Shown here piece by piece: positions 5,101-26,845 of a stretch of DNA of 26,845 bases. Position 1 is the stretch's first letter, and each line of letters opens with the position of its first letter. Source of the DNA: a virus. Its lineage: Duplodnaviria; Caudoviricetes. Made by a program: the position numbers and the translations under genes. Below the pieces are notes generated by a model. It did no database searches. It worked only from the letters and a program-made list of their open reading frames with translations, and was not told where the DNA came from. The stretch spans positions 1-26,845 of IMG/VR virus record IMGVR_UViG_3300032116_001119, one strand, 5' to 3'.

Positions 5101-5118
5101 CCTGCCAGGTTCCCGCCC

Positions 5119-7402: not shown

Positions 7403-7459
7403 ACCAGCCATAGCGGGCGGGGGTGTAGGCATGGGTCAAGCCAAAGGAGGGCTGACGTT

Positions 7460-7651
7460 ATGCCTAAGTTCGACCAAGTGTTTATCGGCAATGTTCTGGC
7501 TGGCCTCGCGCTGGCTTTCCTGATCGACAACCTCGCCATGGGCGGCGTCGTCACGAAGACGCTTCCGGCGGAAATCGTCGGCATCATCGGCTTCATCATC
7601 TTTGCAGGCGTGTGCCTGTACGGGTTCAAGCAGGCGAAGAAGCTCAACTAA
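7460..7651 (+). CDS. Small two-transmembrane protein (moron-like)
   Basis: 63 aa; AAGGAGG RBS; two hydrophobic helices and basic tail KQAKKLN. Confidence 0.75.
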   Translation: MPKFDQVFIGNVLAGLALAFLIDNLAMGGVVTKTLPAEIVGIIGFIIFAGVCLYGFKQAKKLN

Positions 7652-7701
7652 ACAACGCCTCCATCCAGCCTGCATATTCTGCACGCTGACAAGGAGATTT
7701 C

Positions 7702-8664: not shown

Positions 8665-8684
8665 CCCGCGTTCCATCAGCCAGA

Positions 8685-8838
8685 CCCCCTGTCGCGGCGG
8701 CGATAGGCAGGGGGCGAGGCACGCGGCCAACCCGGTTTCCGGCCCCGCGTTTCTATAAGGCCGCTGTCAGCCCCCGCTTATGCGGGCCAACCTGTCAGCC
8801 AGCCGGATCGCCTTGTTTTCACCCCTCTTTGACAAGGG
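8685..8838 (+). promoter_or_regulatory. Structured capsid mRNA leader with twin CCAAC/CC internal-loop hairpins
   Basis: Hairpins 8685-8714, 8721-8750 and 8763-8799, plus CCCT/AGGG 8823-8838 over the probable SD. Confidence 0.6.
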
Positions 8839-8849
8839 ATCGATAGATC

Positions 8850-9701: not shown

Positions 9702-9713
9702 GGAGATAAGCAG

Positions 9714-10046
9714 ATGGCTTTCACACCTGATACACTTCACCTCGCGGCTGAGGCCGGCGGCATCCTCGGTTTCAAGCTCTGGGTCTATGACACGACGGAT
9801 GCAACCGGCGTGGTCGATGGCACGGACTACTTTGCTGGCATGTCCGCTCCGGCTTACGGCCACCGCGGCATGGAAGTCGGTGACCTGATCCTGGTCCGGA
9901 TCTGGACGACCTCTGTCCCGGCGACGACGGCAGCTAAGAACGCGGCGAACCCGGCAGATGCCGGTTTCTACATCGTCCGGGCTGTCGATTCGGACGGCAA
10001 CGCCACCACGGCGACCGAGACCGCAATCGTGGTGGCTGCGGGCTAA
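9714..10046 (+). CDS. Virion protein, probable capsid decoration/cement
   Basis: 110 aa; TAAGGAG RBS; Thr/Ala/Gly-rich beta character; immediately after capsid. Function inferred from position. Confidence 0.65.
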   Translation: MAFTPDTLHLAAEAGGILGFKLWVYDTTDATGVVDGTDYFAGMSAPAYGHRGMEVGDLILVRIWTTSVPATTAAKNAANPADAGFYIVRAVDSDGNATTATETAIVVAAG

Positions 10047-10075
10047 CCGGCTCCGTAACTCACCCATACACGGCG

Positions 10076-10103
10076 AGGGGGCTAGGTTCATCCTGGCCCC
10101 CTT
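10076..10103 (+). terminator. Strong hairpin, partial terminator or mRNA stabiliser
   Basis: AGGGGGCTAGG-TTCAT-CCTGGCCCCCT; poor U tail; lies after the two high-copy head genes. Confidence 0.55.
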
Positions 10104-10118
10104 AGCTATGGAGCAAGC

Positions 10119-10634
10119 ATGACAGTCCGCTGCGAAGACAAGAACCTGAAGCTCGAAGTGGCGGGCTCGACCCGCAACAAGTACCACTGCCGCGTGCCGG
10201 TGACGCATTCCGTCGATGACGTGCTGAACCCGGACTATTTCGGCCTGCTTCAGTCCAGCAACCGCCTCACGGTAGGCGACCGGATCGAAGTCGAGTGGCA
10301 GGATTTTTCCTGCATGTTCGAGCTCGTCGTCCTTGCCCAGACCAATATCAGCCAGCTGATCTGCCGCCGCGTGACGGAGATCGTGACGTTTGGCGAGATG
10401 GCGTTCCCGAAAGACTGGGAAGCCAAGTGGATGGGCGACGCCGAGAAGTACGGCATCTTCTATAAAAACACGCTGAAGGATGCGGGGCACCTGTCCAAGG
10501 AAGCTGCCCTGACCCGCGTGAATGCGATGATCGCTGCCGATGCACAGGCCGCACAGGGCCGGGCGATGAATGCCGGCATGGTGGCAGAGCCCAAAGCCAA
10601 GGCGAAGGTCAAGGCAGACGAGGCGGCGGCGTGA
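10119..10634 (+). CDS. Hypothetical protein
   Basis: 171 aa; GGAG RBS; DDVLNPDYF..LTVGDRIEV. Confidence 0.8.
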   Translation: MTVRCEDKNLKLEVAGSTRNKYHCRVPVTHSVDDVLNPDYFGLLQSSNRLTVGDRIEVEWQDFSCMFELVVLAQTNISQLICRRVTEIVTFGEMAFPKDWEAKWMGDAEKYGIFYKNTLKDAGHLSKEAALTRVNAMIAADAQAAQGRAMNAGMVAEPKAKAKVKADEAAA

Positions 10635-10867
10635 GCGAGGGCAAAACACAAATTCCAGTCGTGCAGTTTCTGGCCGCTAACAAAGCCTACGCGGTATCCC
10701 AGCGTTTGGCTGGTGTGGTAGCGGCTCGCCTTGATGCCGAGCCCGCTTTTGCTGCTTGGCTTCAGGAGCAGGCGGACATGCTGCGAGACGTGCATGACGA
10801 CCTGTATGGAAGACCGCAGGCCGAAGCAAAATTGCACGTAATCAATAATTCCTCAGCGGAAACCTAA
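10631..10867 (+). CDS. Hypothetical protein
   Basis: 78 aa; GTGA overlap; fills the gap to the next gene; weaker codon bias. Confidence 0.55.
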   Translation: MSEGKTQIPVVQFLAANKAYAVSQRLAGVVAARLDAEPAFAAWLQEQADMLRDVHDDLYGRPQAEAKLHVINNSSAET

Positions 10868-10870
10868 CCC

Positions 10871-11476
10871 ATGCCCACGCAGGCGACCGTATTGAAGAAT
10901 GCGCTTCGCCTGCTGGGCGAGCCGTCGAGTGTCGGCATCGACAGCGACAAGAAAATCGTCCGCGAGATCATGGGCGCATGGGAAGACGTGGCGGGGCGAT
11001 TGTTCGAGTCGCACCCGTGGAACGCTTTCAAGTCCGTTGCCCAGCTGACGCAGGTCACGCCGGCAGTGCTCGGCTGGGAATACACGTTCAACCAGCCCGC
11101 CAATTGCAAGCGGGTGATTTTCGTGTCGGACGTGCTGAACGAAGACGGCTACCCGATCGAGTACACCTGGCACGCGGGCAAGATCCTGTCGAACCACGAG
11201 ACGACCTATTGCTGGTTCGTGGACGGCGCGTACATCGAGCAGGTTGGCGGCTGGCCCTCGACCTTTGCAGACCTGCACGCGGCGCACCTTGCGAGCGAGG
11301 TCTACCCCGTCAACGACGAGAGCGACAACACCCGCAGCCGGATCGACACAGCGATCGTGGACCGGGGCAATGCGGCGCGGGCCTTTGACGGCTCGACGGA
11401 CCCGATCGTGAGAAGCAAGCCGGGCGAGTACCTGCGGTCCCGGCGCGGCTGGCGTCCGGGCGGCTGGAGAGGGTGA
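10871..11476 (+). CDS. Tail tubular protein A / adaptor (T7 gp11-like)
   Basis: 201 aa; NALRLLGE, HPWNAF and WEYTFNQPANC motifs; position. Confidence 0.85.
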   Translation: MPTQATVLKNALRLLGEPSSVGIDSDKKIVREIMGAWEDVAGRLFESHPWNAFKSVAQLTQVTPAVLGWEYTFNQPANCKRVIFVSDVLNEDGYPIEYTWHAGKILSNHETTYCWFVDGAYIEQVGGWPSTFADLHAAHLASEVYPVNDESDNTRSRIDTAIVDRGNAARAFDGSTDPIVRSKPGEYLRSRRGWRPGGWRG

Positions 11477-11517
11477 CATGTACAACCTCCTGACCCTGAC
11501 TTCGAAGGGCTGATGCA

Positions 11518-12006
11518 ATGGCCAAATCCAAGTCGGAAGTGGTCGCGTTCAATGCGGGCGAGCTTGGCAAGGAAGCCCTTGCCCGTGTCGATCTCCAAAA
11601 CTACGCCCGCGGCGCCGAGATCATGGAGAACATCTTCCCGCTGAGACAAGGCGGGATGACCAAGGCGCCGGGCACGATATTCGTAGGCGAGACGCCGGAC
11701 AGCGCGGTGGCATTGCTCCGGCCGTGGGTCACAAGCGACGTTGCGCGGTTTGCCCTTGAGATCAGCGGCTCGAAGATCCGGTTCGTGGTCGATGGCGGCT
11801 ATGTCACGCTTGAGGGCGCGGCTGCGACCGTGGGCAGCTGGACAGACGAGAGCGCTGTCATTCCGAGCGGCGGCGGCACGGCTCCTGATGGCGGCACAGG
11901 CGACATTGGCGGCGGCAGCGAAGGCGGCAGCGGCGGCTTTGGCGGCGGCTTCTTTGATGGCGGTCTTGGCGGGTTCAGCGGCCTTGGCGGGGGCTATATC
12001 CCATGA
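11518..12006 (+). CDS. Tail tubular protein B / nozzle, N-terminal part, with Gly-rich tail
   Basis: AFNAGEL..ARVDLQNY..ENIFPLRQGGMTKAPGT is the characteristic nozzle N-terminus; ends in about 45 Gly-rich residues. Confidence 0.8.
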   Translation: MAKSKSEVVAFNAGELGKEALARVDLQNYARGAEIMENIFPLRQGGMTKAPGTIFVGETPDSAVALLRPWVTSDVARFALEISGSKIRFVVDGGYVTLEGAAATVGSWTDESAVIPSGGGTAPDGGTGDIGGGSEGGSGGFGGGFFDGGLGGFSGLGGGYIP

Positions 12007-14294
12007 GCGCGTCCATTGCGGCAGTCGGGGCCGTGGTTACGTTTACGGGCGCGGCCGGAGAACGCGCTATTGCGCAAGTGGAAGTCACGACCGCTGCGCC
12101 TACCGATGCGGTCAGCTACAAGTTCAAGATCACGCGGCGCGTGCTGCGCCTCCGGGTTGGGTCAACGTCTGACGGTGAGGACATCGTCCAGGCTTCCTCG
12201 TTTGGCCCCGGCGACCATGTCGTCACGTTCACACCGGGCGTGTCGCCCTACTATGTCCAGTTCTTCCTTGAGGGCGTCGGCACGGCCACGCTCGAAGGCT
12301 TTGCCCGCATTGCTGCCGGGATACTTGAGCTGCCGAGCCCGTGGACGGCTGACGAAATCCCGAGCCTGAGACACGACCAGAGTTTCAATACGATGTGGTT
12401 CTGCGGCGCAGGCAAGGACATCCATGTGCTTGAGCGGCGCGGCGCGCTGTCCTGGTCGATCCGCCCGTTCCTCCAGCTGGACGGGCCGTTCGCTCCGATC
12501 AACCTTGGCAATACCACGCTGACCCCGAGCGCACAGACCGGCACGGTCACGCTCACGGCAAACAGACCGCTGTTCGGCACCTATGATGTGGGCGCACTGA
12601 TCCGCCTGACGCATAGCGGCCAGTTCGTCACGATCGGCGCTTCGGCGGTAGACGATGTGACGGACCCGGTCGAGATCACGGGCGTCGGCAACACGAGGCA
12701 GCTGTACTATTCTGTCACCGGCACCTTCGTAGGGACGCTTCTGCTTGAGCGCTCGATCGGCAACACGGTGAACTACCAGACTGTGCTGACGGTCACTACG
12801 GCGAGCGAGGCGTATTACCAGGACGACCTCGACAACCAGGTCGTCTATTATCGCTGGCGGATGAGCGCTTATACGTCCGGGTCGGCTGTCGCCAGCATCT
12901 CGTTCCCGTCTGGTGTGACGGATGGCATCGCCAAGATCATCACAGTCACGGCTGACAATGCCGTCACGGCGGATGTCATCACGCCGTTTGGTTCGCTTGT
13001 CGCCACCTCGCTCTGGTCGTTTGGCGACTGGTCGGGCCGGTACGGCTATCCTGATGCCGTGGCGCTGTTCGATGGCAGGCTGTGGTTCGGACGGGGCAAC
13101 CAGTACTGGGGGTCGGTCAGCGACAATTTCGGCAGCTTTGCAATCGGCCCGCTGGCCAGTGACGCGATCGGCCGCAGCTTTGGCGGGCGGATGTCGGCGG
13201 TGCGCTGGCTGTGCGGCGCTGGCGGGCTGCTGGCAGGGTTGTCTGGATTTGAAAGCGAGATCGGTAGCAACGCTTATGGCGACGTGTTGAAGCCTGAAAA
13301 CGTGCGCGCGTTCAACAAGACCACAAAGGGCTCCGCCGATGCCAATCCCGCCTTGGTCGATCAAGCTGCGATGTTTATCAACCGCAGCCGACAGCGGATA
13401 TATCGGTTCGGGTACAGCAACTCCGCCACCGACCTGGAGCGCGGCAGTGTCATTGACCTGACGCGCTTGCACCGCGAGATCGCCTCGACGCTGGGCTTTG
13501 TCGAAATCGACTGGCAGCAGGAGCCGGAGCCGCGTCTGTGGTGCGTGCGGGGCGACGGCGAGGTCGGGGTGCTGGTGTTCGACGCTGATGAAGGCGTCGT
13601 GGCGTGGAGCCGGATCAAGATGGACGGCTTTGTCGAGTCGGTCTGCTGCCTGCCTACGGACGGAGCGGAGGACGAGGTTTACATGGTCGTGCGGCGCACG
13701 GTCGATGGCGAGACGGTGCGGTATGTCGAGCGCCTTGCGCCCGAGGCATGGGACGAAATCGAGGACGCCTGGCGCCTGCACTGCGCGCTGGAGTATGACG
13801 ACGAGGCCACGACAACGCTGTCCGGCTTGGAGCATCTGGAAGCGCGCACGGATGTGTATGTCTGGGCCAATGGCCAGCAGGCCGGGCCGTTCACGGTGAC
13901 GGACGGTGAGATCGAGCTGGATTTCGAGGTCACGTATGCCATCGCGGGGCTGCTGTACGAGGGCAAGTACAAGTCCGGCCGCCTCGCATGGGGCGCGCAG
14001 ATGGGCGCTTCGCTGGTTGCCAACAAGCAGTTGGAGAAGCTGGGGCTGGTGATCCACCGCACCGCAGGCGCGGCGCTGAAGTGGGGGCCGGACTTCACCG
14101 ACATGGAGCCGTTGGACGACCGCATTGCCGATGGCTCGCTGACGTTCGACAGCGCCGTCCAAGAATGGAACGGCGACCACGAGTTCAACGTGCATAGCTG
14201 GACCGAGCGCGACACGCGGCTGCATATCTCGATGCCGACCGCGGGGCCTGCGACGGTGCTGGCATTGGTGAACACTTTGAAGGTGAACGGTTGA
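12003..14294 (+). CDS. Tail tubular protein B / nozzle, main body (T7 gp12-like)
   Basis: 763 aa, beta-rich; GYPDAVALFDGRLWF, WQQEPEPRLWCVRGDG, VVAWSR and LSGLEHLE motifs. Confidence 0.88.
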   Translation: MSASIAAVGAVVTFTGAAGERAIAQVEVTTAAPTDAVSYKFKITRRVLRLRVGSTSDGEDIVQASSFGPGDHVVTFTPGVSPYYVQFFLEGVGTATLEGFARIAAGILELPSPWTADEIPSLRHDQSFNTMWFCGAGKDIHVLERRGALSWSIRPFLQLDGPFAPINLGNTTLTPSAQTGTVTLTANRPLFGTYDVGALIRLTHSGQFVTIGASAVDDVTDPVEITGVGNTRQLYYSVTGTFVGTLLLERSIGNTVNYQTVLTVTTASEAYYQDDLDNQVVYYRWRMSAYTSGSAVASISFPSGVTDGIAKIITVTADNAVTADVITPFGSLVATSLWSFGDWSGRYGYPDAVALFDGRLWFGRGNQYWGSVSDNFGSFAIGPLASDAIGRSFGGRMSAVRWLCGAGGLLAGLSGFESEIGSNAYGDVLKPENVRAFNKTTKGSADANPALVDQAAMFINRSRQRIYRFGYSNSATDLERGSVIDLTRLHREIASTLGFVEIDWQQEPEPRLWCVRGDGEVGVLVFDADEGVVAWSRIKMDGFVESVCCLPTDGAEDEVYMVVRRTVDGETVRYVERLAPEAWDEIEDAWRLHCALEYDDEATTTLSGLEHLEARTDVYVWANGQQAGPFTVTDGEIELDFEVTYAIAGLLYEGKYKSGRLAWGAQMGASLVANKQLEKLGLVIHRTAGAALKWGPDFTDMEPLDDRIADGSLTFDSAVQEWNGDHEFNVHSWTERDTRLHISMPTAGPATVLALVNTLKVNG

Positions 14295-14755
14295 GAACCG
14301 AGCTCTTGACCGGCTGGCACTTTGTCGAGATCGGGCTGGGCTACGCGCCGGAAGACGTGTCTGGCTTTGCGCTGCGGGACGATGACGGAAAGCTGCTCGC
14401 AATGGGCGGGCTGTGGTTCATCGATGACCGCGCCGTGGCGACGTTCTGGTCGAGGCCCGGCTGGACACCTAAACCCCGCGTCCACCGCCTTGCGATAAAG
14501 ATAGTTGATGCGGCGGTTCACGCTGGTGTCACAGAGATATGGGCGGAGGAAGATGCGCGTGTCCCGAATGCCCGCAAGTGGTTGGAAAGATTTGGTTTTG
14601 AGCGTGTCGGACAAGCTGAAGACGGATTGCCGTTGTGGAGGCTCGACCTAGATGGCCGAGCCCGTGACAATGACCATGATGGCCGTGGGCGCGGCCACCA
14701 GCGCAATGGGCTCCATCAGCCAGGGCCGTGCAGCGAACGCAGCGGGCAAGTATAA
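14291..14755 (+). CDS. GNAT-fold protein at the T7 gp13 position
   Basis: TTG start overlapping the previous stop; LLAMGGL and NARKWLERFGFE GNAT-like motifs; 3' end overlaps the next gene by 104 nt. Confidence 0.7.
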   Translation: MRTELLTGWHFVEIGLGYAPEDVSGFALRDDDGKLLAMGGLWFIDDRAVATFWSRPGWTPKPRVHRLAIKIVDAAVHAGVTEIWAEEDARVPNARKWLERFGFERVGQAEDGLPLWRLDLDGRARDNDHDGRGRGHQRNGLHQPGPCSERSGQV

Positions 14756-15236
14756 CCAGCGCGCGGCGCAGGCTGAAGCTGCCGCCATGGAGATACAGGC
14801 CGGGCAGGAGATTGCCGGCGCCTCGCACAATTCGGCGCGCATTGCCCAGCGGATGCGCGAAATCCTTGCCGAGCAGCAGGCAGCTGCTGCGTCTGGCGGT
14901 GGCTCGACACAGGACGCGACCGTTGTGGCGATCCGCGACGAGGCGGTGAAAACCTCGACGCTCGACCAGCTGCTTGAGATGACGGCTGCGGAGGAGCGGG
15001 CTGAACACATCAAGCGCGGTGCCCGTGTGACCCGTGACGAGGGCTACATGGCCCGCCAGCAGGGCAAGGCGGCGCAGACGGCAGGATACCTGCAAGCTGG
15101 GGCTTCGCTGCTGAGTGCGGGCTCTACATGGGCCGACAAGTTCGGCACCGGCAGTGTGCCGAAGACGGGCGTCGGCGCGGCTGCTGGCGGCATGACGAGC
15201 ACGATCGGCTCAACCATCAAAAAGTATAAGGGCTAG
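14652..15236 (+). CDS. Internal virion / ejection protein (T7 gp14-like)
   Basis: 194 aa, Ala/Gln/Gly-rich; hydrophobic N-terminus then SQGRAANAAGKYNQ; GGAGG RBS. Confidence 0.8.
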   Translation: MAEPVTMTMMAVGAATSAMGSISQGRAANAAGKYNQRAAQAEAAAMEIQAGQEIAGASHNSARIAQRMREILAEQQAAAASGGGSTQDATVVAIRDEAVKTSTLDQLLEMTAAEERAEHIKRGARVTRDEGYMARQQGKAAQTAGYLQAGASLLSAGSTWADKFGTGSVPKTGVGAAAGGMTSTIGSTIKKYKG

Positions 15237-15239
15237 GCC

Positions 15240-17090
15240 ATGGCCAAGCTCCCCCGCTCCCCCATCTCGGTTGACGTTCAGACCAACTACCGCCCCGTGC
15301 GCGAGGCGCGGGCGAGCGGCGCTGATCCTGTCGGGCAGGCGATGGAGCAGGTCGGCAACGCAGGCTTCGAGATTGCAACCCGCATGGCGGATGCGAAGAT
15401 TGCGGCAGATGCGGCTGAGGCTTCGATCCGCCTGCGCTCGCGCCTCGATGAAGAATCCCGCGCGATCGAGAACGACATGGAGGGCGACCCTGCGGGGTTT
15501 GAGGCCCGGTTCCGTGAGCGTGCTGCTGCGATAGCGAACGAAGAAGCGGGGAAGATGTCGAGCCCGGCCATGAAGCGCGCCTTTGCGCTGAAGGCCCAGG
15601 AGCAGACCGAGACCTATTCGATCAATATGCGCGACGTGACCCGGCGCCGGCAGGTCGAAGGCGTCAAGGCGCAGACCATGAAGGTCGGCGCGGACTATGA
15701 ACTGCTGGCGAAAGACCCGTCGAAGCCCCGCGAGTTGCTGGAGCAGTCCCGCGACGATTACCTCGCGCTGATTGACCGGCAGCAGAAGGCGGGCATCTAC
15801 ACGCCGGACGTGGCCGAGGCGGCGCGGATCGCGGCGAATGAGGTGTACCGCGCAGGCGTCACGACGCGGCACCTGACGAACGTCGATACGATGCTGGACG
15901 CAGGCCGGTATGGCGAGGCCGAGGAATACTTCAAGGCCAACTACGGCGAGATGGACCCGGCCCAGCGCGAGAAGGCTGAGCAGGTGCTGGAGACGAAGAG
16001 GCGCGACGGTCAGGCCGTTTCGCTCGCGGATGAATACTGGGCAGCATCAGGCAGCAACTACGGCGCAGCCATTGCTGAAGCGGCAAAGATTGAAGACCCA
16101 GACCTGCGACTGAAAACCGAGGCGCGGATTGCGCAGCTTGAAAGCCAGAGGACAGCCGCTGAAGGCATCAAGGACGACGCCGACTGGAACGCCGGCATGG
16201 AGTACGTCACCACGGGGCGGCCAATTCCTGCATCCATCATGCGCGAGGCATCGCCCAAGGTGCGCGACCTGTTGCAAACCGAGGAGCGTTCGCGTGCGCT
16301 TTGGGCGCAACAGATGGCGACAGCCAGCGCTGAGGAGAGGGCAGCCTTGCGTGAACTCAGCATGGGCAACTATCGCAGCCTCAAAGCCGCCGTCATCAGC
16401 GATCCGGAGCTTGCGATGGCGGGCACGCGCGCTGTGTTGGCAGACCCCTATCTGGCTGACCTGTACCAGAACATGACGCAGGACGAGCGCGGACAATTTG
16501 ACCTCGACATGGCGAACGCTGCCAAGAATGGTGGAGCGCCTGTGGACTCGGTGTCGAAGGCCTACAAAGCGGTCGTGGCGGTTGCCGGTGTCTACCTGCC
16601 TGAAGGCCTGACCGCAAAGAAATATTCCGACAAATTCAAGGGCCTTGGCGAGGGCGATCCGGCAGCAAGGAAGTACGGGGCAGACAAGACCAAGAAAGAC
16701 CCAGCTATCCTGTTCGAGCGCGAGCTGATGCGCCTCGTGGAAGACGAAGTGCGGCGCACTGGCAATCCGGAAATTCCGGCAGATCGCGCCAAGCAACTGA
16801 TTGCCCTGTCATATGCGGCGGCCGGCAAGAAGGAAGACGGCAGCACGGCGTACCCGATCAGTCAGGACCTTGCGGGCGGCATTGTCTCGACGCAGGCACA
16901 GCGCGATGTGCTGGACTTCCGCCGCATGAACCCGGACCTCTGGTCGGAAGCCACGGCCATGGTCCGCTCGAAATACCCGGAAGCGTCCGACGCGCTCATT
17001 CTGGCCGAGGCCCGAAGAATCAGGGCATATCAGGACGCAGAGGCGGCAGCCGGCTTTGTTGGCTCGCTGTTTGGCGGCAAGAAGGAATAG
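15240..17090 (+). CDS. Internal virion / ejection protein (T7 gp15 position)
   Basis: 616 aa, helical, MAKLP start; assigned by synteny. Confidence 0.72.
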   Translation: MAKLPRSPISVDVQTNYRPVREARASGADPVGQAMEQVGNAGFEIATRMADAKIAADAAEASIRLRSRLDEESRAIENDMEGDPAGFEARFRERAAAIANEEAGKMSSPAMKRAFALKAQEQTETYSINMRDVTRRRQVEGVKAQTMKVGADYELLAKDPSKPRELLEQSRDDYLALIDRQQKAGIYTPDVAEAARIAANEVYRAGVTTRHLTNVDTMLDAGRYGEAEEYFKANYGEMDPAQREKAEQVLETKRRDGQAVSLADEYWAASGSNYGAAIAEAAKIEDPDLRLKTEARIAQLESQRTAAEGIKDDADWNAGMEYVTTGRPIPASIMREASPKVRDLLQTEERSRALWAQQMATASAEERAALRELSMGNYRSLKAAVISDPELAMAGTRAVLADPYLADLYQNMTQDERGQFDLDMANAAKNGGAPVDSVSKAYKAVVAVAGVYLPEGLTAKKYSDKFKGLGEGDPAARKYGADKTKKDPAILFERELMRLVEDEVRRTGNPEIPADRAKQLIALSYAAAGKKEDGSTAYPISQDLAGGIVSTQAQRDVLDFRRMNPDLWSEATAMVRSKYPEASDALILAEARRIRAYQDAEAAAGFVGSLFGGKKE

Positions 17091-17276: not shown

Positions 17277-20200
17277 ATGGCAGATGGCAGCAACTACACT
17301 CTCACCGAAGAAGAAATCCGTGCCGCATCCGAGCGCCTGAAGGCGCAGGAGGACGAGCGGCGTTCATACCGGCAGAAGTCATGGGACATGACCCAGCCGC
17401 CACCGGACCAAGCCGCTGAGGCGCTGGCTCTGGGCGGCAAGTTTGGCGTGCCTCGGCAAGCGGTCGAGGCTGATCCTGACTATTGGCGCCGCCGTGACAA
17501 GGAGGCCCAGGATGCGCTGATGCGCAGCGCCTCGCCGCGCGTCATGGCGTGGATGGACAACGCCGACAACTATGCCGTTGCGAAGGATGACGTAAGCCTC
17601 TGGTCCGACATTGAGCGCGGGTTCGGAGATATGGGCCGGGCATTGGCCGAGAACCCAGCCGGCGCTCTGGTAAAGACCGGCAACAACCTTCGCAGCGCGG
17701 TGCGCTCTGGCTGGTTGTCGATGAACAGCACGACTGCGGACATTGACCGCGAGCAGCTTGAGAAGGCTGCCGCGTACTATGACGCATATGACGAATGGAA
17801 GTCCCGCGAAGACCAGCGCAAGGCCGAGGGCAAAGGCGGCTGGCTGAACCGGATTGCCATGCAGCCGATTACGCCCCGGCTTTACCTGCCCGGCGATTCT
17901 GACCCAATGCCCCAGCCGTCTGACCGGCTGATCCGCGAAGCCATGAAGCCGGGGCAGGCGTCGTGGCAGAAGGTGCTTGGTATTCCGGGGGCTGAGTACC
18001 GCAACGATCCTGCTACGGCGATCAATGCGATCCGTCCCATGATCGAGGATGCCATGCGGGACGCAGTGCGCGTGTCGCAGGAAAAGGACGCCGCTGCCGA
18101 CGCGGCCATGCCGCAGACCGGAAACTTCGTGGCGGATAACCTGCTGGCCGGCATCCGGTCGCTGACTGAAATGGCGCCGCTGGTGGCGTCTGCCATTGCG
18201 ACACGGGGAAAGACTGTGCCGGCTGCCGTGATGGGCGGGCAAGTATACTACAACGAGTTCTCGCGCGGGCGAGATGCCGAGCTTGACCTTTCCGACTCCA
18301 CGAACCGCGCGCTCTTGCAAGCAGGTGTTGAGACGATCTCGGAGCGTATCTCGCTCGGCATCATTGACGACATGCTGAAGTCCGATCGCGGCATAGTCCA
18401 GCGGTTCGTGGGCGGCATGATTGCCGAGCAGGGACAAGAGCAGATTGCCACGATGGGCAGCCGCCTTGTGGACTGGGCCTATCTCGATTCCGACAAGACG
18501 CTGGACCAGTTCCTTGCCGAGACGCCGCGCTCGATGGTGCAGACCTCGCTTGCCACTTTTGTTGCCTCCGCAGGGATGCAGGGAACGTTCCTGGCGGTCG
18601 ATGCGATCACGCAAGGGCTTGCCAAGGAGTCGGTGTTTATCCAGCCCTCTGCAAACGAGAAGCGGCTTTCGACCTTGATCGACAAGGTGAGCGGCGCGAA
18701 ACTCTCCACCCGCTCCCCCGAGAAAGCCGCAGAACTGGCAGGCAGGCTCACTGAAGGCACAGACCTTGAGACTGTCACAGTGGATCTGGACGGCGTGGCG
18801 AGCGCCTTGCAGCAGGCTGGCATTGATCCGGCTGAGGCGTTGTCTGCGCTCGGCGTGACCGAGGAGCAGCTTGCCCAGAAGTACGAGCGGTTCGGTGAAA
18901 TCGAAGTCTCGACGGCTACACTCATCACCTCGCCCCTGATGCGCGAGAACCGGCAGCTGGTCGAGCCGCATGTCAGGGCGGGCAGCGATCAGTACACCCC
19001 GGCCAAGAAAGAAGCGCTGCGCACCGAGTTTGACGCTGAAGTCAAGGACGGCGTGGCGCGGATACAGGAAGCCATCGACGGCGGCCGTGCGCTGGTGGAG
19101 AAGGAACAAGCCGTTGTGGACCGCGTGCGTGAGCGCCTGTCAGGCTCCGGCATGTTTCCCGAGCGCGTCATGCTGGACAAGCAGGTCGCTATTCAGGCCG
19201 CGACGGTGAACACGTTCGCAAAGCGCCTCGGCGTCGATCCGGTCGAGTTCTACGAGCAGCACTTCCCGAAAATCCAGGGCTCCATTGACGGGATGGTGAT
19301 GGAGGAGAATGCGCTGGAGCAGGCCCGCACCGAAGGCTACGAGGGCGAGGACCGGGGCGAGGCTGTTTCATGGCTCGCAGCGAAGCGCAAGGGCCTTGAT
19401 ATGTCCGTTGAGGGTCGGATGGCGCGGGCGAAGGAGATGGGGTTCGATACGGAGACGGTGCTGTATCATGGCACGGACAAAGCAGGCTTCGACAGCTTTG
19501 ACGTAAATGCCCCCGAGAGCGCGCGAAGCGAAGGCGAGGAGGCCGTATTCCTTACAAACAACCCGACGAAGGCGTCAACATTCGCGGGCATTAAAAACCA
19601 AAGCATTATGCCACTTTACGTCCGTGGCCGGATCAAAACACTCAGCGCAGAAGACGTGCCAGAATTGGAAATTGCAGACGGCACCGGCCAAATGGCATAT
19701 CACTCAAAAACATTTTCACGCATCCTCGCGCAAGCCAAAGCGGAAGGCTTTGACGGCGTTCGGTTCAAGAATGTTAACGAAGGCGCGGTTGGCGACCAGA
19801 TCGCCATCTTCGACCCCTCCAACATCCGCAGCGTCCATGCCGCCTTTGATCCGGACAATGCGGGGAGTGCGAACCTGCTGGACCAACTCATCGGCTCGAA
19901 AGCCAAGTCCGCAGACAAGGCCATCCTGAACCGCGCAAAGGCAATGGCGAAGGAGAAGGTCAAGAACGACAAGGGCAAGAAGGTCCCGAAGTACACCCGC
20001 CAGCAAATCTGGGACGAGACGGCGAAGCTGGGCCAGCCTTGGTATCAGGACGACAACGGCGACTGGATCAGCGAGATCGAGGACGGCACGATTGTCGTCA
20101 AGGACGCCAAGGGCCCGCTCAGTGAGGTCATTGAGTTCCCGAGTCTCTATGCTGAGTATCCAGCGCTGACGAAGATGAAGGCTGATACTCGCAGCAAGGT

Positions 20201-23200
20201 AAAGGTGCAGGAAGAGGGGGGTAAAGACTTACCGGGCACCAAAGGTGTGTTCACGCCCAATCCGTTCTTGTTCGGCGCGCACGTACGAATTTCAGACCGG
20301 GGCAAGAACAGCCGCGAATACACCGTCACGCACGAACTGCAGCACGCGGTTGATCATCTCGAAAACCGCGAGATGGGCCGCAACAAGCCATACCTTCTCA
20401 AAGACACCGAGCGGCGTGCGTTCAATACGATGTACCGCCGCCTGTGGACCATGGAAGAACGGATCGCTACCCCGCCATGGAAGACCGAGCAGGAGGCCAT
20501 CGACTGGATGATGGGCCAGCGGGACTTGAATGCCGACGCTGCTAAATTTGCCAAAGACGGAACATTTGATCCCGGTTCGACGATCCGGCCGCCTGAACAG
20601 ACAATGCCGAAGACTCGCGAGGACGAAAACGTCCCTACTGGCGCGCGCGAACGAGACTTGGCAATGCCGAAAGAACTCGTCCGCGGTATCCATTATGGCG
20701 ACCGCGTGCCTCGCGCAGACTTGAAAACCTACGCCCCGCCAGCGGGTTTGCTTGGCCGCACGTTCCTGTCGATCCGCGACCTGATGCGGTCTGCGGCGAA
20801 GAATGAGCGGATTGCGGAGGTTTTGACCGGCCTTCAGAGCCCAGCAAAGGGTGAATATGTTTTTCGTGCTGACTTGCCCAAAGGCACGACTGGTTACGAA
20901 ACCATCCGCACAAAGATAAAAATTGGTGCCAACTTTGAACCGATCGCAATGATTGGGGAGGGAAGCCAACAAGCCGATGAAAGAGTTCGGTCGTTGATGC
21001 AGGCGATCGGGGCGACGCCCGAAGAAGCAGAGGTTTTGAGAATTGCCATCGCCCGCGACATGGAGGGTCCGGACGCTGTTCTGAAGTCACTGGACCAGAT
21101 GGTCAAAAATCGGCCTGACCTGATCAACAATCAGGATGTTGGCAGGCTTCGCGATATGGCGCGCGGCATGTTAAAAACGTTAGGTGAGCCAGAAACGCGA
21201 TATACAGTTCCGCGCACGAAAGCCGAAGAAGCCAAGGAAGCCAAACGCCTCGAAGTCGCGCTGGCCGACAAGCTGCTCGACATGGACAAAACCATCGATC
21301 AGCAGCCTGCAAACGTCCGCACGTTCTTCGAGGAAATGATCGCTGAGCAGCAGTCACGCCCCGACCTGATCGCGGGCGGGTATGACTACACCCAGCCGGG
21401 ATATTTTGACGGCATGACGGCCGGCGCGCTGATGCGCTCGCTTGCTGAGGCGCAATTCTCCGAGTCCGGCATTCGTGACCCGATGATCGCCATGATCCAG
21501 CGTCTTCGCGCTGCTGGCATTGTGGGCGCACGGTATGTGCCGGGCGGGGTCAACACGGCAGAGGATGCCCCGCCACAAACCCAATCCATCGTCATCTTCG
21601 ATGAGCGCGCCCCGGTCCTGCTCACGGACCAGTCCGGCAACCTGATGCAGGAACGCCGCGGCCAGTTCTCCCCCGATACCAACACCGTCACGCTGTTCGA
21701 GCAGAGCGACGTGACCACGATGCTGCACGAGGGCGCGCACTGGTATCTTGACCTTGTGGAGAAAATGGCAAAGGCGCCGGACCCGCATCCGTTCGTGGTC
21801 GAACAATACCAGGCCGTGCAGAAATGGTACGAGGGCGTCAAGAGCACCCCAGCCCTCAAAGCCGCTCGCCTGAACTACAGGATACAGCAACAGGGCAGCA
21901 GCTTTGTGCTCTATGAGAAGGACGGCGCGAAAGAAAAACTGCGCGGCCGCTTCGCATCGCAGGCCGAAGCGGAAGCCCGCATCGACTGGATCGAGATGCA
22001 CGAGACATGGGCCGAGACGTTTGAGGTTTATGTGTATACTGGCAAGGCGCCTTCGGAAGCGCTTCGCAGCACCTTTATTGCTTTCAAGGATTGGATCACA
22101 AAACTCTGGAAGCGCCTGTATGGCAATGGCCAACCTGCCCGCGCAAACCTCAACCCCGAAGTCATCGCCATCATGGACCGGATGCTGGCCGTCGATGAGG
22201 AGATCGATGCTGCGGTTGCTGATGTTTTCATACCCTTTGAGGCACAGGCAAAAGCCCTTCGCGCGCAAGGCGCGCTGACGCAAAAGGAGTATGAAAGAGC
22301 GCTCGCCAACATGGACGACGCCCGTGAGAAGGCCAAGGAAGACTTCGGCGCGCGTGTCATGGCGGACAAGATGCGCGAGGACGAGGCGTGGTGGAACACC
22401 GAGAAGCGCAGGGTGCGGGGCGATGTTGTGCGGGAACTGGACCGCTCACCGATCGGGCGGGCTCTGTCATGGCTGGGCTATGGGCAGTGGAAGGGGGATG
22501 TGCCGGTTGGGGAGACTGAGCAGCAGGATGATGGCGCGGAGTTCTACCAATCCATCCGCGCCGCCACCCGTATGCCGATGCCAGAGGTGGACGCATGGGT
22601 GCGCGATAACGTCTCTGCCAACATCCAGACGTTCCAGAACGGCGATGAAAGCATGATGATGCAATGGCCGCTGACGGAAGACCCGGACGCGCCGACCGTG
22701 CTGATGTCGATCCGCCTGAACCGCAAGGGCCGGGCAGACGTGAACCTGTTCCTCGACAACAAGATGGCCGACGCGCTGGAGAACGTTGAGGACGTGAATG
22801 AGCGCCGGATGCTGGCGACCGAGATGTTCTCGCAGGCGGTCATGGTCATGCGCCAGTATGCGGCCGAGACGCCGGACCTGAAGGCGTTCAATTTCATCGC
22901 GGCTGAGAGCCAGGCCGAAGGCACGAAGGCCAAGTCCCGCGAGGAGCTTTATCGGTTCATGCTTTCCACGCTCAAGCTGGACGGCTATACTGCCTATGAA
23001 GTCACGGGCCAGATGAGCGTGGTGCGTGAGGAAGGCGGGGCCAAGATGGCTGATCCGCTGTTCACGCCGGGCTCAAGTTTCGTTCTGGTCAAAGATGGAG
23101 TTGACGCCAATGAGTTCGCCCGCACCGAAATTCTTCGCGGCTCTCAGAGAGGGGGCAGTGCCGGAGAAGTCGTCACAGCCCTCAAGGCCGTCCAGCTCAC

Positions 23201-26200
23201 TCGTCCCGCCCGTGGAGGAATGGGCCGAGGAGGACGTGAAGCTGGCGGACCTGATACTGGCGGCGTTGTAGGAGACCAAAATGCGCTTAACCAACTGGGA
23301 CCCCAACGCTCCGGAGACCGAGGAAGACGGGATCAAGGCCGAAGGTTTGCGCCGCTTGCGGGTGCGCCAAATGTCCAAGGCGCCAGCGGCCCAGACCAAA
23401 GGCTTGTCCAAGTCGCGGAAAGCTACGCGCAAGCCCAAGGCTTAGACCTTCGCCGGCAGGCTGAATACGCCCGCGTCGATCCAGAGCGCGCTGCCCGGAT
23501 TGCGCAGGCATACGAGGACATGCAGCACGCGCCGAACGATCCGGCTGTACGTGCTGCTTATGAGGACCTGATCCGCCAGACCATTGAGCAGTACCGAGCG
23601 CTTGAGGCGGCCGGCTATCGGTTCTGGTTCTTTGACGAGACCATAGACCCCTATGAAGGCAACCCGTGGAACGCGATGCGGGATCTGCGCGCCAATCAGC
23701 GGATGGGCGTGTTCTCGACTGTTGGAGGTTTTGGCTCCGGCGCCACTGACCTGAATGTGGAAGACAATCCGATGCTGGCAGAGACTGGCATCGAGTGGCC
23801 GGTTGGCTCTCTGGACGGCGAGATGCGTCCGGTACTGGCCAATGACTTGTTCCGCGCCGTGCATGATGCTTTTGGACATGGCCTGGAAGGCGCAGGCTTC
23901 CGCGCACAAGGCGAGGAGAACGCATGGCAGGCGCACGTCCGGCTGTTCACGGGACCGGCCGTGGGCGCCATCACAAGCGAAACACGGGGACAGAATAGCT
24001 GGCTGAACTTCGGCCCGTATGGCGAGGCTAACCGAACGGCCGCTGTCGAAGACACGGTGTTTGCCGATCAGAAGACCGGCCTCATGCCCGAGTGGACATG
24101 GACCGAAGGCCGCGTTCCGGACATGGATGACGGCGTTGTAGATAACTCGCTGGGGCAGCAGGGGGCTGAGCAAAAAACCCTGTTTGTTGCTCACAACACC
24201 AGCGAAGAAAAGCTGCGCAAGACGCTGGAACTGGGCGGCTTCCCGATGCCGTCTCTCGCCGTTGCGCGCACCGACAAGGGTGGGTTCCCGAGCTTCGGGG
24301 AGATCACTTTCCTTGCCGATCCAAAGCTGCTGGATGAGTCGGATGTGACGGCCTACGACGCCGATATCTACTCACCAACCGTGCCGGAAAAATATCCGAA
24401 GGTGAGCCCTGAGAAGGCCGGCGCATTTGTCAAGAAGGCGAAGGCGCTGATCCCGGAAGGCGCGATGATCCCCGAGTATCTGGGGTATGACGAGACCGAC
24501 CGTGATCTTCCTCGCACGCTGATGAATAGCGAACTGGTGCAGCTTGCCTACCTGTCAGAACAGGGCAAGGCGCCGAAGCTCAAGAAGCTCAAAGTGGCCA
24601 AAGAGGTCAAGGCGGCGCTGAAAACCGAATATGAATCGCCGGAACGCGCGGCCTTCGCGTTGGCATATTACACTCGCCTTGATCAGGAACTGAACGCGGC
24701 TCGTGCCGAGAAGGGCATTGAACCGACAAACATCTGGGTCGAGGATGATGGCTCAATCTCTTACCGGAACCAACGCAATTTTGACGACCTGATTTCCGAG
24801 GCGAAGCGCTCGCCATTTGATCAGAAGGCGTACAAATCAGAGCTTTACAACCGGACTATGGGATCGCTTGTTGCCCGCGAGAAGTTCGCCAAGTACACGG
24901 CAGAACTGGCCGGTGAAATCACTGAGAGCTATCGTATTTTCAAAGGCTTCACCTATTCCGGAAACCGCAAGTGGGTGCCGTTCAATCTTGAGAATGTGAT
25001 GGCCGAGATGCGCAAGGACCTGCGCGAAGGTAATCACGACAGCTTTGGTGGCACAGGGTCGATTCGTGCGCGGGTTGGCACTACGGCCATGCCAAAGATG
25101 AAAGACGTGCAGCGCAATCGTGACCGCATCGTTTCAGAAGACGAAATGCGGGCCATCAAAGATCGCCAATCTGAGCGGTTCATGGAACTGGCAAACGACA
25201 TTGCCAAATATTACAAGTTCGCCGCAACAGGCCTTCGCTATTACGACGCCGCTGCTGAGGCGATCGCTCTCGGCCCGAAAGAATGGCGCGAGAGTTTTGC
25301 TGCTGAAGCGCTGCCCGCGATCCGCGCTTATGTCGAAGAACTGAAGGCTCTGCCTACGGAATATTTCGAGGCCAAGGCCAACCGCGTCATGCAACTCGGT
25401 GACTTTGCTGCTGCTGTGGTTCCTCGCAACGTCAGTCCTGACATTCTGCAAGCCATTCGTGCGGCTGGCGTGGACGTTCGCTTCTATAAGCGCGGCGACG
25501 AAGCGGATCGCCTTCGAGCCGTGCAGCAAATGGAAGGTTTACTATTTCAACCCGGCGACCCCAAAGGCTGGGGCGAAACAGCCCCGCCTCCGGACCTCCC
25601 GCCGATGCGCCTCGACCTTGAGGCGACTGAGCGCTTGTATGGCAAGGAAGCCGTGGCCAAGCTGCCCAAGGCGATCCGCGACCGGGGCCGGGACCAGACC
25701 AGCATCGACAGCATGTTCGCCATTGCACGGGCCACTGCAAAGACGCTGCGCCGCAAACCGCCCAAGTCGCTGTTCCAGTTCATCCGGTCCCGCAAGGCCC
25801 GCACCGTCGAAGGCAAGACCGTCCCGGTCAAGCAATGGGGCATCCGTGGCGCGGCTGACGAACTGAAGGCCATGGACCGGGCCGACCTCATCAATGAGGA
25901 AAACGGCATCCATATCGACTACATGCGCGAGCTGGCTGAGGAAGCCGGGTATCTCTCCGAAGGCTCGACGGTCAACGACATGCTGAACGCGATCGACCGC
26001 GAGGCGCGGGGCGAGCCGGTGTATTCGAGCCAGGATCAGAACGAAGTCCTCGACTATCAGAACGCCGAGGAATGGGCGAACTGGTTTGACGAGCAGGGCG
26101 TGGACATCACCGAGAAGGACGAGAAGGCGCTGCGCGCCAAGCTGGCCAAGGTCGTCACCTCGACCGCTGCGGATGCCGTCACGCCGGACCAGGCCGCAGA

Positions 26201-26845
26201 ACTGCTGGGCTTCAACACGGGCGAGGAACTGCTCGCCGCGCTGGCAGAGATCGGCAACCGCGAGCGGTTCATCCAGGCCGAGACGGATCGCCGGATGGCG
26301 GCAGAGTTTGGCGACCCCTACAAGGACGGCACGTTTGCCGAGGCGGCGCGTCAGGCTGCTGAGAGCGAGGTCAAGGCCCGCGCGGCCGAGATCGAACTGG
26401 AAGCGCTGGCGAGGGCCGTGGGCGAGTCTGCTGCGTCGAAGATGGCGAAGCAGATGGCTGAGGAATCGCTTGCTCTGATGACCGTCAAGGAACTGGCGGG
26501 CTGGACGAAGTTCCTCGACGCCGAGCGCCGGCATGGCCGGAACGCTCTGGCTGCCACGAAGAAGGGCGACATGGTGGAGGCCATGCTGCACAAGCGCCGG
26601 CAGCTCGTGTCGATGCACCTTGCCCGGGCGGCCCGCGAGAAGTCCGAAGCGCTCGAGAAGACGCGCAAGGACCTGATGAGCTATCTCACGTCCAAGGGGC
26701 GCCGGGACAAGATCGATAGGGGGTATTTGGATAAGATCGAGGCGCTGCTGGACAGCTACGAACTGCGCGTCTCGAAGCAGGGACCAGGCACCCAGCGCGC
26801 TCGCTTGTCTGCCAAGCAGTATGTCGAGCAGATGATCGCGGACGG
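17277..26845 (+). CDS. Giant polyvalent ejection protein (>3189 aa, 3' partial; T7 gp16 position)
   Basis: ATG 17277; the same frame is open to the window end. Contains YHGT ART-like (19464), HELQH (20331), HEGAH (21726), HDAFGH (23862) and HN...EYFEAK (24192-25376) modules. Confidence 0.93.
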   Translation, partial: MADGSNYTLTEEEIRAASERLKAQEDERRSYRQKSWDMTQPPPDQAAEALALGGKFGVPRQAVEADPDYWRRRDKEAQDALMRSASPRVMAWMDNADNYAVAKDDVSLWSDIERGFGDMGRALAENPAGALVKTGNNLRSAVRSGWLSMNSTTADIDREQLEKAAAYYDAYDEWKSREDQRKAEGKGGWLNRIAMQPITPRLYLPGDSDPMPQPSDRLIREAMKPGQASWQKVLGIPGAEYRNDPATAINAIRPMIEDAMRDAVRVSQEKDAAADAAMPQTGNFVADNLLAGIRSLTEMAPLVASAIATRGKTVPAAVMGGQVYYNEFSRGRDAELDLSDSTNRALLQAGVETISERISLGIIDDMLKSDRGIVQRFVGGMIAEQGQEQIATMGSRLVDWAYLDSDKTLDQFLAETPRSMVQTSLATFVASAGMQGTFLAVDAITQGLAKESVFIQPSANEKRLSTLIDKVSGAKLSTRSPEKAAELAGRLTEGTDLETVTVDLDGVASALQQAGIDPAEALSALGVTEEQLAQKYERFGEIEVSTATLITSPLMRENRQLVEPHVRAGSDQYTPAKKEALRTEFDAEVKDGVARIQEAIDGGRALVEKEQAVVDRVRERLSGSGMFPERVMLDKQVAIQAATVNTFAKRLGVDPVEFYEQHFPKIQGSIDGMVMEENALEQARTEGYEGEDRGEAVSWLAAKRKGLDMSVEGRMARAKEMGFDTETVLYHGTDKAGFDSFDVNAPESARSEGEEAVFLTNNPTKASTFAGIKNQSIMPLYVRGRIKTLSAEDVPELEIADGTGQMAYHSKTFSRILAQAKAEGFDGVRFKNVNEGAVGDQIAIFDPSNIRSVHAAFDPDNAGSANLLDQLIGSKAKSADKAILNRAKAMAKEKVKNDKGKKVPKYTRQQIWDETAKLGQPWYQDDNGDWISEIEDGTIVVKDAKGPLSEVIEFPSLYAEYPALTKMKADTRSKVKVQEEGGKDLPGTKGVFTPNPFLFGAHVRISDRGKNSREYTVTHELQHAVDHLENREMGRNKPYLLKDTERRAFNTMYRRLWTMEERIATPPWKTEQEAIDWMMGQRDLNADAAKFAKDGTFDPGSTIRPPEQTMPKTREDENVPTGARERDLAMPKELVRGIHYGDRVPRADLKTYAPPAGLLGRTFLSIRDLMRSAAKNERIAEVLTGLQSPAKGEYVFRADLPKGTTGYETIRTKIKIGANFEPIAMIGEGSQQADERVRSLMQAIGATPEEAEVLRIAIARDMEGPDAVLKSLDQMVKNRPDLINNQDVGRLRDMARGMLKTLGEPETRYTVPRTKAEEAKEAKRLEVALADKLLDMDKTIDQQPANVRTFFEEMIAEQQSRPDLIAGGYDYTQPGYFDGMTAGALMRSLAEAQFSESGIRDPMIAMIQRLRAAGIVGARYVPGGVNTAEDAPPQTQSIVIFDERAPVLLTDQSGNLMQERRGQFSPDTNTVTLFEQSDVTTMLHEGAHWYLDLVEKMAKAPDPHPFVVEQYQAVQKWYEGVKSTPALKAARLNYRIQQQGSSFVLYEKDGAKEKLRGRFASQAEAEARIDWIEMHETWAETFEVYVYTGKAPSEALRSTFIAFKDWITKLWKRLYGNGQPARANLNPEVIAIMDRMLAVDEEIDAAVADVFIPFEAQAKALRAQGALTQKEYERALANMDDAREKAKEDFGARVMADKMREDEAWWNTEKRRVRGDVVRELDRSPIGRALSWLGYGQWKGDVPVGETEQQDDGAEFYQSIRAATRMPMPEVDAWVRDNVSANIQTFQNGDESMMMQWPLTEDPDAPTVLMSIRLNRKGRADVNLFLDNKMADALENVEDVNERRMLATEMFSQAVMVMRQYAAETPDLKAFNFIAAESQAEGTKAKSREELYRFMLSTLKLDGYTAYEVTGQMSVVREEGGAKMADPLFTPGSSFVLVKDGVDANEFARTEILRGSQRGGSAGEVVTALKAVQLTRPARGGMGRGGREAGGPDTGGVVGDQNALNQLGPQRSGDRGRRDQGRRFAPLAGAPNVQGASGPDQRLVQVAESYAQAQGLDLRRQAEYARVDPERAARIAQAYEDMQHAPNDPAVRAAYEDLIRQTIEQYRALEAAGYRFWFFDETIDPYEGNPWNAMRDLRANQRMGVFSTVGGFGSGATDLNVEDNPMLAETGIEWPVGSLDGEMRPVLANDLFRAVHDAFGHGLEGAGFRAQGEENAWQAHVRLFTGPAVGAITSETRGQNSWLNFGPYGEANRTAAVEDTVFADQKTGLMPEWTWTEGRVPDMDDGVVDNSLGQQGAEQKTLFVAHNTSEEKLRKTLELGGFPMPSLAVARTDKGGFPSFGEITFLADPKLLDESDVTAYDADIYSPTVPEKYPKVSPEKAGAFVKKAKALIPEGAMIPEYLGYDETDRDLPRTLMNSELVQLAYLSEQGKAPKLKKLKVAKEVKAALKTEYESPERAAFALAYYTRLDQELNAARAEKGIEPTNIWVEDDGSISYRNQRNFDDLISEAKRSPFDQKAYKSELYNRTMGSLVAREKFAKYTAELAGEITESYRIFKGFTYSGNRKWVPFNLENVMAEMRKDLREGNHDSFGGTGSIRARVGTTAMPKMKDVQRNRDRIVSEDEMRAIKDRQSERFMELANDIAKYYKFAATGLRYYDAAAEAIALGPKEWRESFAAEALPAIRAYVEELKALPTEYFEAKANRVMQLGDFAAAVVPRNVSPDILQAIRAAGVDVRFYKRGDEADRLRAVQQMEGLLFQPGDPKGWGETAPPPDLPPMRLDLEATERLYGKEAVAKLPKAIRDRGRDQTSIDSMFAIARATAKTLRRKPPKSLFQFIRSRKARTVEGKTVPVKQWGIRGAADELKAMDRADLINEENGIHIDYMRELAEEAGYLSEGSTVNDMLNAIDREARGEPVYSSQDQNEVLDYQNAEEWANWFDEQGVDITEKDEKALRAKLAKVVTSTAADAVTPDQAAELLGFNTGEELLAALAEIGNRERFIQAETDRRMAAEFGDPYKDGTFAEAARQAAESEVKARAAEIELEALARAVGESAASKMAKQMAEESLALMTVKELAGWTKFLDAERRHGRNALAATKKGDMVEAMLHKRRQLVSMHLARAAREKSEALEKTRKDLMSYLTSKGRRDKIDRGYLDKIEALLDSYELRVSKQGPGTQRARLSAKQYVEQMIAD
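23110..23271 (+). CDS. Putative overprinted 53 aa ORF in the +1 frame of the giant gene
   Basis: GGAG 23097-23100; 3' half uses typical codons (GTG GAG GAA TGG GCC GAG GAG GAC GTG AAG CTG GCG GAC CTG). Confidence 0.45.
   Translation: MSSPAPKFFAALREGAVPEKSSQPSRPSSSLVPPVEEWAEEDVKLADLILAAL
23281..23445 (+). CDS. Putative overprinted 54 aa ORF in the +1 frame of the giant gene
   Basis: AGGAG 23270-23274, 6 nt before ATG; MRLTNWDPNAPETEEDGIKAEGLRRLRVRQMSKAPAAQTKGLSKSRKATRKPKA. Confidence 0.5.
   Translation: MRLTNWDPNAPETEEDGIKAEGLRRLRVRQMSKAPAAQTKGLSKSRKATRKPKA

Follow-up and report, generated by a model that had tools for sequence, protein, structure and literature searches.

Whether a short peptide motif at the junctions of a giant modular phage protein marks where the chain is cut, where its modules are exchanged, or both, is the question raised by a stretch of 26,845 nucleotides from a virus of the Caudoviricetes (positions 1 to 26,845 of IMG/VR record IMGVR_UViG_3300032116_001119), which as a whole is called the window here. 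Its last open reading frame (ORF; 17277-26843, plus strand) encodes a giant polyvalent protein. An earlier note on this DNA had proposed that N-x-L-x-Q motifs between the modules of this protein are sites of self-processing, cut perhaps by an embedded HExxH peptidase, and that they may also act as recombination anchors. Comparison with relatives showed that modules are exchanged at a tag and that the tag tracks the family of the carrier protein rather than the cargo. From this comparative evidence, the tag, [L/F/Y]-x-Gln, is probably the self-cleavage site of a zincin with the motif HEGAH, reused as a crossover point.

The motif at module boundaries

All seven pentapeptides of the earlier note are present in frame with the giant ORF on the plus strand: NALEQ at 19308..19322 (Q682, junction 1), NLLDQ at 19872..19886 (Q870, junction 2), GNLMQ at 21636..21650 (Q1458, junction 3, directly before the peptidase), AEFYQ at 22536..22550 (Q1758, junction 4, also covered by the homolog comparison), NALNQ at 23280..23294 (Q2006, junction 5), NSLGQ at 24144..24158 (Q2294, junction 6) and GLLFQ at 25536..25550 (Q2758, junction 7). 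The two HExxH motifs, HELQH at 20331 and HEGAH at 21726, were confirmed as well, and the upstream sequence described as common to two sites, GGCGTTGTAG, was found only at 23262 (23262-23271) and 24132 (24132-24141), just upstream of junctions 5 and 6. The proposed consensus did not hold, as N-x-L-x-Q fits only four of the seven sites and Asn occupies position -4 in 31 of 131 homolog junctions. At position -2 these 131 junctions have Leu (99), Phe (14), Tyr (13), Ile (3) or Met (2), with Gln at position 0, positions -2 and 0 having themselves served to pick the junctions; the real consensus is [L/F/Y]-x-Q.

A chance pattern in a long protein has to be considered, because [LFY]-x-Q occurs 30 times in the 3,189 amino acids (aa) of the window protein. 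The earlier note had rightly cautioned that the bare motif occurs elsewhere, and since the motif alone is not specific, its significance was drawn from relatives. Scored with a profile built from homologs, the seven sites take ranks 2, 3, 4, 5, 8, 12 and 14 among the 145 Gln of the window protein. The junction Gln is kept in homologs, for example Q870 in 57 of 58 aligned homologs and Q1458 in 68 of 84, and off-junction LxQ and FxQ are poorly kept (Q411 in 7/43, Q819 in 8/35 and Q1476 in 15/117), Q2834 being intermediate (21/39).

Relatives were gathered by a search with the peptidase region, the best 120 of 238 matches being used, and 80 of 113 viral loci were added. The closest relative among those used, L001, has the backbone in common with the window protein, different cargoes, and its ADP-ribosyltransferase-like (ART) module in another slot. 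Enrichment at domain boundaries in homologs, which the earlier note had set as its own test, was strong. In an all-against-all comparison that ignored the motif, [LF]xQ was found within -4 to +2 residues of the end at 133 of 764 pairwise homology ends, against a shifted null with a mean of 35 and a maximum of 54, and in 66 of these 133 it stood exactly at the last aligned residue. A stricter version limited to sharp ends gave the motif at 33/208 ends in the close clade and 42/249 in the distant clade (shifted null 7.9 and 9.2), and sharp-end starts in the distant clade (46/359) were not above the null maximum of 50; the signal is weaker here because variable loops inside domains diluted it.

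With the HExxH motif as anchor, 110 of the 124 non-redundant relatives compared have [LFYMI]-x-Q 22-40 residues upstream of it, after a wide variety of preceding modules and down to about 25% identity; random windows gave a mean of 26.3 and a maximum of 43 of 124. The 124 relatives are what remained of 194 peptidase-positive sequences after removal of 14 without a pattern match and 56 near-duplicates. No relative with a dead peptidase was found, as these 14 are pattern misses, truncated ORFs or split domains, with one unresolved.

The five cargoes of the window protein, all on the plus strand, were projected onto relatives, and the motif was counted within 8 residues of each cargo end, where random expectation is about one in five. 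In peptidase-bearing carriers, M1 (19323..19886, 188 aa), an ART-PolyVal domain (PF18760, E 1.2e-13), has the motif at its start in 40/46 cases and at its end in 46/47. M2 (19887..21650, 588 aa), which consists of a zincin-like HELQH part (20331-20345) and an unnamed C-terminal part, has it in 6/6 at both ends, and M3 (22551..23294, 248 aa), which belongs to no named family and gave only a DUF6934-like lead (atlas score 0.87), in 19/19 at the start and 11/14 at the end. For M5 (24159..25550, 464 aa), which contains the predicted RNase domain PBECR5 (PF18814, E 5.4e-19), the counts are 16/20 and 16/17. The start of M4 (23295..24158, 288 aa) is the weakest of all ends with 4/10, and its end reaches 12/17. 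M4 is a widespread, highly conserved module with an HDAFGH motif and 1,007 matches among shorter proteins, some of them small forms of stand-alone size; it has no Pfam name and gave no usable atlas match.

These boundary and projection counts, the conservation of the junction Gln, and the ART-tail and DNA-switch counts given below are all far above their nulls, which refutes chance for the boundary pattern and leaves it close to negligible as an explanation. The compared sequences thus contain a repeated site at domain boundaries, as a self-cleaving polyprotein would. The earlier note had also suspected a junction near 20600 that lacks the motif. The motif is indeed absent there, and the gap is not an exchange point, because aa 871-1458 (M2) begins and ends alike in all relatives where it is complete, travels as one unit and has no conserved internal motif; MMGQ at aa 1081, considered as an eighth site, was rejected because it is not conserved in homologs.

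Peptide and DNA at the exchange points

The tag could be a recombination footprint only, in which short DNA homology at module ends allows in-frame swaps and the peptide is a passenger. Several observations fit this account. When the window was aligned with seven close loci, 16 of the 86 alignment ends, where DNA homology switches, lay within 10 nucleotides of a junction Gln codon (1.3 expected), these ends not being independent events because relatives share junctions. Homology with L001 stops at 19322 (junction 1) and resumes at 21647 (junction 3), and that of L001, L011, L012 and L014 resumes at 25542-25545 (junction 7). In addition, junctions 5 and 6 share the 10-mer given above, and 23 of the 45 bases upstream are identical between junctions 1 and 5.

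The codons argue against a mere footprint. Across 53 junctions, selected in 35 ORFs by protein patterns, the Gln codon is CAG in 32 and CAA in 21, and all six Leu codons are used. Leu, Phe and Tyr replace one another, and the remaining base positions all stay at or below 0.64 bits. As the codons at the junctions are free, the constraint acts on the peptide, and there is no DNA consensus beyond what the peptide demands. No junction repeat family was present among the 20 largest direct-repeat families either; with free synonymous positions and no junction repeat, the cassette ends do not carry the conserved DNA site of an integron- or shufflon-like system. Furthermore, neutral microhomology would be expected to decay at the identities of about 25% to which the tag persists. 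We therefore regard a footprint alone as quite unlikely. The anchor proposal of the earlier note is borne out in that DNA homology switches at the Gln codon, and has to be amended in that the constraint lies on the peptide, with third positions free. As the comparisons show, modules are exchanged at the tag, and the tag is kept as a peptide, not as DNA.

Sequencing runs were also inspected, and the listing named no RNA run as a holder. In four low-depth contig sets no joint skipping a module was found, and a single-sequence pattern search of genome contigs found no relative. In runs X8-X10, a contig from a different genome meets the window sequence at position 19314, in junction 1; the match is short and would fit a related ART cassette starting at the tag.

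Carrier dependence and the HEGAH zincin

The ART module, used as a query, matched 56 large proteins, some from carriers without a HEGAH-clade peptidase. From 97 distinct ART tails, 8 without a second anchor were set aside (7 of these show the motif). The motif was present in 64 of 67 tails in carriers with the HEGAH-clade peptidase vs 1 of 22 in carriers without it, and for the tail subtype of the window's own ART in 42/44 vs 0/15. Three tails in peptidase carriers are exceptions, of which that of JessA is an anchor slip (it does end LAQ) and the other two end in His. Tails in carriers without this peptidase end in R, S, A, G or K. The same ART cassette, 89% identical (207/233), ends LLAQ in P0123, which has the peptidase, and ILSAG in P0143, which has no HExxH. 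Both carrier classes are mixed in the ART tree, with 10-12 changes, 3-5 of them forced by well-supported branches; both trees of this analysis are quick searches. In an independent set found with M4 (18/120 dropped as duplicates, too short or unanchored), the motif occurred in 6/6 peptidase carriers vs 17/96 others, many of the 96 being fragments. At the level of sequence, these contrasts show that the tag tracks the carrier family holding the HEGAH peptidase rather than the cargo.

Other module-end tags are repeated in P0154, P0124, P0156, P0122 and P0126, which are without a HEGAH-clade peptidase: D-[IV]-R-[FY]-[SRK], [LV]-L-A-S-R, ITKAKGG and LAR. Several of these carriers have an HExxxH-type motif.

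The conserved peptidase itself occupies 21651..22550 (plus strand, 300 aa including a helical segment), with HEGAH at 21726-21740 and a likely third zinc ligand, Glu1576, at 22002-22004. H1484, E1485, H1488 and E1576, an HExxH with a downstream Glu, are invariant in 36/36 aligned sequences and in 21 full-length proteins. In a structural model (predicted local distance difference test, pLDDT, 81.7), two strands are followed by the HExxH helix and a later helix with the Glu; a single-sequence fold of pLDDT 50 was set aside. By sequence, no solved relative was found below E 0.05, and the Spartan SprT was a weak match (E 0.14).

The tags might be cut by another enzyme, namely the HELQH zincin, a separate phage protease or a host protease. 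The window protein does contain a second HExxH, P0133 uses Gln without a peptidase of the HEGAH clade, and the gene scan covered part of the 53-kb source contig, where a further protease gene is possible. Against this, the motif stands before the HExxH in 93 of 105 relatives that have a single one, the scan of the head genes turned up no protease, and a change of tag with carrier family is not something a host protease would require, so that we judge another enzyme highly unlikely. The HELQH motif, which the earlier note had counted as a possible cutter, is dispensable by the same 93/105; in this comparison the HELQH zincin is a cargo and is not needed for the tag.

A second alternative is that nothing is cut and the tag is a binding or handling signal: while the protein is packed or ejected, module tails would dock on a part specific to the family, such as the backbone, the portal, the ejection conduit or the peptidase fold acting as a reader. 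Such a signal would likewise be constrained as a peptide, occur once for each module and follow the carrier family, and the tag-bounded inserts inside the peptidase fold described below are easier to accept if no cut is made. It fits less well with the invariance of the catalytic residues, and a three-residue tag in acidic, Gly/Pro-rich linkers would be short for docking. Cargoes with different targets would also gain from release, as argued in PMC5512222. We consider an uncut signal unlikely.

Self-cleavage at the tags thus remains the reading we favour. In this mechanism, the HEGAH zincin would cut its own chain at the tags into separate products, which, if the cut falls after Gln, would be the N-terminal backbone (75 kDa), ART (20 kDa), M2 (66 kDa), the peptidase (35 kDa), M3 (27 kDa), M4 (32 kDa), the PBECR5 module (52 kDa) and the C-terminal backbone (131 kDa). 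They would be set free inside the head or once the protein has entered the host. Placing the cut after Gln is a guess: since many zincins recognise the residue that follows the scissile bond, cleavage may instead fall before the hydrophobic residue. A new cargo would have to acquire the tag of its carrier to be released. Because all modules end in similar codons, the tag could double as a short common sequence for in-frame cassette swaps, a by-product that would keep the system modular.

Support for the self-processing proposed by the earlier note is indirect: the peptide is constrained with its codons free, and the tag, in the form [L/F/Y]-x-Q, follows the HEGAH carrier family. Several points weigh against it. 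First, the evidence for cutting is wholly comparative, and no cleavage has been observed. The motif is also not confined to linkers, since the density of the bare motif is not raised in the cargo zone (12.8 per 1,000 aa vs 16.0 and 6.9; 6/26 proteins parsed) and some off-junction sites in folded regions score as high as true junctions in the homolog profile; linker exposure must therefore add specificity. Among relatives, 14/124 have no motif before the peptidase, P0024/P0025 end an ART in His, and P0133/P0134, without a HEGAH-clade peptidase, end an ART in Gln twice. In the ART tree, well-supported branches leave only 3 independent pairs, which are all concordant (p 0.25). The backbone is also inherited along with the peptidase, so that the tag varies with the entire carrier family and not with the peptidase alone.

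The enzyme itself raises further difficulties. Zincin fold matches from the VIA search are weak (Z 4.2-5.1) and not above unrelated rows, namely 1yqy (Z 5.1, root-mean-square deviation 3.6 over 94), 3dl1 (Z 4.7, 9.0 over 118) and 6fpc (Z 4.2, 4.5 over 104). For the N4 virion RNA polymerase, another protein with such a peptidase, packaging in uncut form is reported (PMC5512222). Finally, in P0034, P0162 and P0170 a tag-bounded insert separates HExxH from the third-ligand Glu within the peptidase domain, and cutting there would nick the enzyme; this is possible for a surface loop, yet unexplained. The insert is an ART in P0162, a GNAT-like part with M4 in P0170, and unnamed in P0034.

The giant protein, a likely ejection protein, and its family

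The window shows a podovirus-like late region, in which profile matches identify the terminase large subunit, portal, likely scaffold, capsid, tail proteins, an internal virion protein and a 616-aa ORF in the position of IVP-C (3436..17090, plus strand), followed by the giant ORF up to the window end. No prohead protease was recognised among the head genes scanned in 3436..17090. The giant gene (17277..26845, plus strand) is cut by the window end after 3,189 aa, and its product in full is 3,944 aa and 437 kDa, as taken from ORF L003:5627-17461 on a contig 100% identical over the query. Its N-terminal backbone (aa 1-682, 17277..19322, plus strand; PHROG 9880) has LPD22 at aa 37-121 (PF18834, E 2.5e-11). 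The conserved C-terminal backbone, 1,186 aa in full, starts at 25551..26845 (plus strand), is 94-96% identical to the closest relatives, and in its full extent matches PHROG 9880 with E 2e-173.

LPD22, ART-PolyVal and PBECR5, all above Pfam cut-offs, thus occur with two HExxH motifs in one giant protein, whose gene sits among the virion genes of a terminase-portal phage and whose domain architecture differs among relatives. By its three Pfam domains it belongs with the polyvalent phage proteins that Iyer et al. described in 2017 (PMC5512222). Its gene follows those of the nozzle and the internal virion proteins, an order also seen for IVP-D-like proteins (PMC4819975), and by this gene position the giant protein is likely a large internal virion protein that is packed in the head and ejected into the host.

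Three neighbouring features were noted. A 44-aa ORF with a single hydrophobic stretch lies between the 616-aa gene and the giant gene (17100-17234, plus strand), where L001 has no gap. A weak GNAT acetyltransferase match (E 0.003) lies at 14291-14755 (plus strand), in the position of T7 internal virion protein A. In both L003 and L001 an Hsp70 gene follows shortly downstream of the giant gene (L003:19648-20883, Pfam E 2e-93; L001:19755-20774, 1e-72), preceded in each by a further gene, the one in L003 with a weak peptidoglycan-binding match.

In RNA viruses, the 3C/3CL proteases, cysteine enzymes with the chymotrypsin fold, cleave polyproteins behind Gln; there, a hydrophobic residue directly precedes Gln and the modules have a fixed order. 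The likeness, by analogy only, lies in one embedded protease, one short repeated Gln site and several products; in the giant protein, by contrast, the likely enzyme is a zincin, the hydrophobic residue is two before Gln, and the cargoes are freely exchanged. Other parallels are found among phages. Iyer et al. predicted that zincin-like peptidases process polyvalent proteins by autoproteolytic domain release, and drew the polyprotein analogy (PMC5512222). The giant protein resembles the polyvalent proteins described there with a zincin-like MPTase hub in its LPD22, ART-PolyVal and PBECR5 domains, its HExxH peptidase with downstream Glu, and its virion-gene position. That account, as far as its main text is available, gives no cut site, linker or junction motif, whereas the present analysis defines a site to the residue, relates it to the exchange points and finds it to vary with the carrier family.

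IVP-D-like ejection proteins with passenger domains include N4 gp50, H66 gp60, epsilon15 gp17 and BPP-1 Bbp10 (Hardies et al., PMC4819975). The giant protein is like them, judged by gene position, as the largest gene after the nozzle and internal virion genes, with domains meant for the cytoplasm; unlike the tag here, no processing code is described for them in the available text. P1 DdrB is reported to be processed before packaging (PMC5512222), and the gp65-gp67 fusions of crAss-like phages are thought to be cleaved (10.1101/2020.03.07.982082). Both are virion proteins with a zincin domain, as is likely here, on other backbones, and the accessible parts of these sources name no sites and do not settle what the zincin does. 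Likewise, no cut sites appear in the accessible portions of PMC9503650, the crAss-like polymerase preprint, the phi24B preprint, PMC4819975 and PMC8951688. The literature searched, which mostly left subscription papers outside, yielded neither a description of this motif nor virion gels or proteomics for a cultured relative. The tag is a real feature in a known protein family, of which the site code and the carrier dependence appear undescribed.

On a wider view, about as probable as not, cleavage codes would be specific to lineages: each lineage of giant ejection proteins would pair one zincin with one short tag, cargoes that move would have their tails rewritten, and the tag would serve as the in-frame crossover point. 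As envisaged in this same reading, the codes would be [L/F/Y]-x-Gln here and R-[F/Y]-S-like, LAS-R and AKGG-like in other carriers.

With exact sites, expected fragment sizes and a likely enzyme, the self-processing prediction of 2017 becomes directly testable, and Cobetia phage Carin1, Caulobacter phage JessA and Pseudomonas phage UFJF_PfDIW6 are cultured relatives in which to look. Since the tag delimits the domains of unnamed injected cargoes, M3 and M4 among them, these can be excised for assays of anti-defence or host-takeover enzymes. If self-cleavage is confirmed, the family would contain a protease of new specificity, and the swapping of cargoes without breaking the ejection protein would be explained. 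Should the lineage codes be true, they would amount to a self-releasing, plug-and-play delivery of injected effectors, together with a new Gln-directed metalloprotease specificity.

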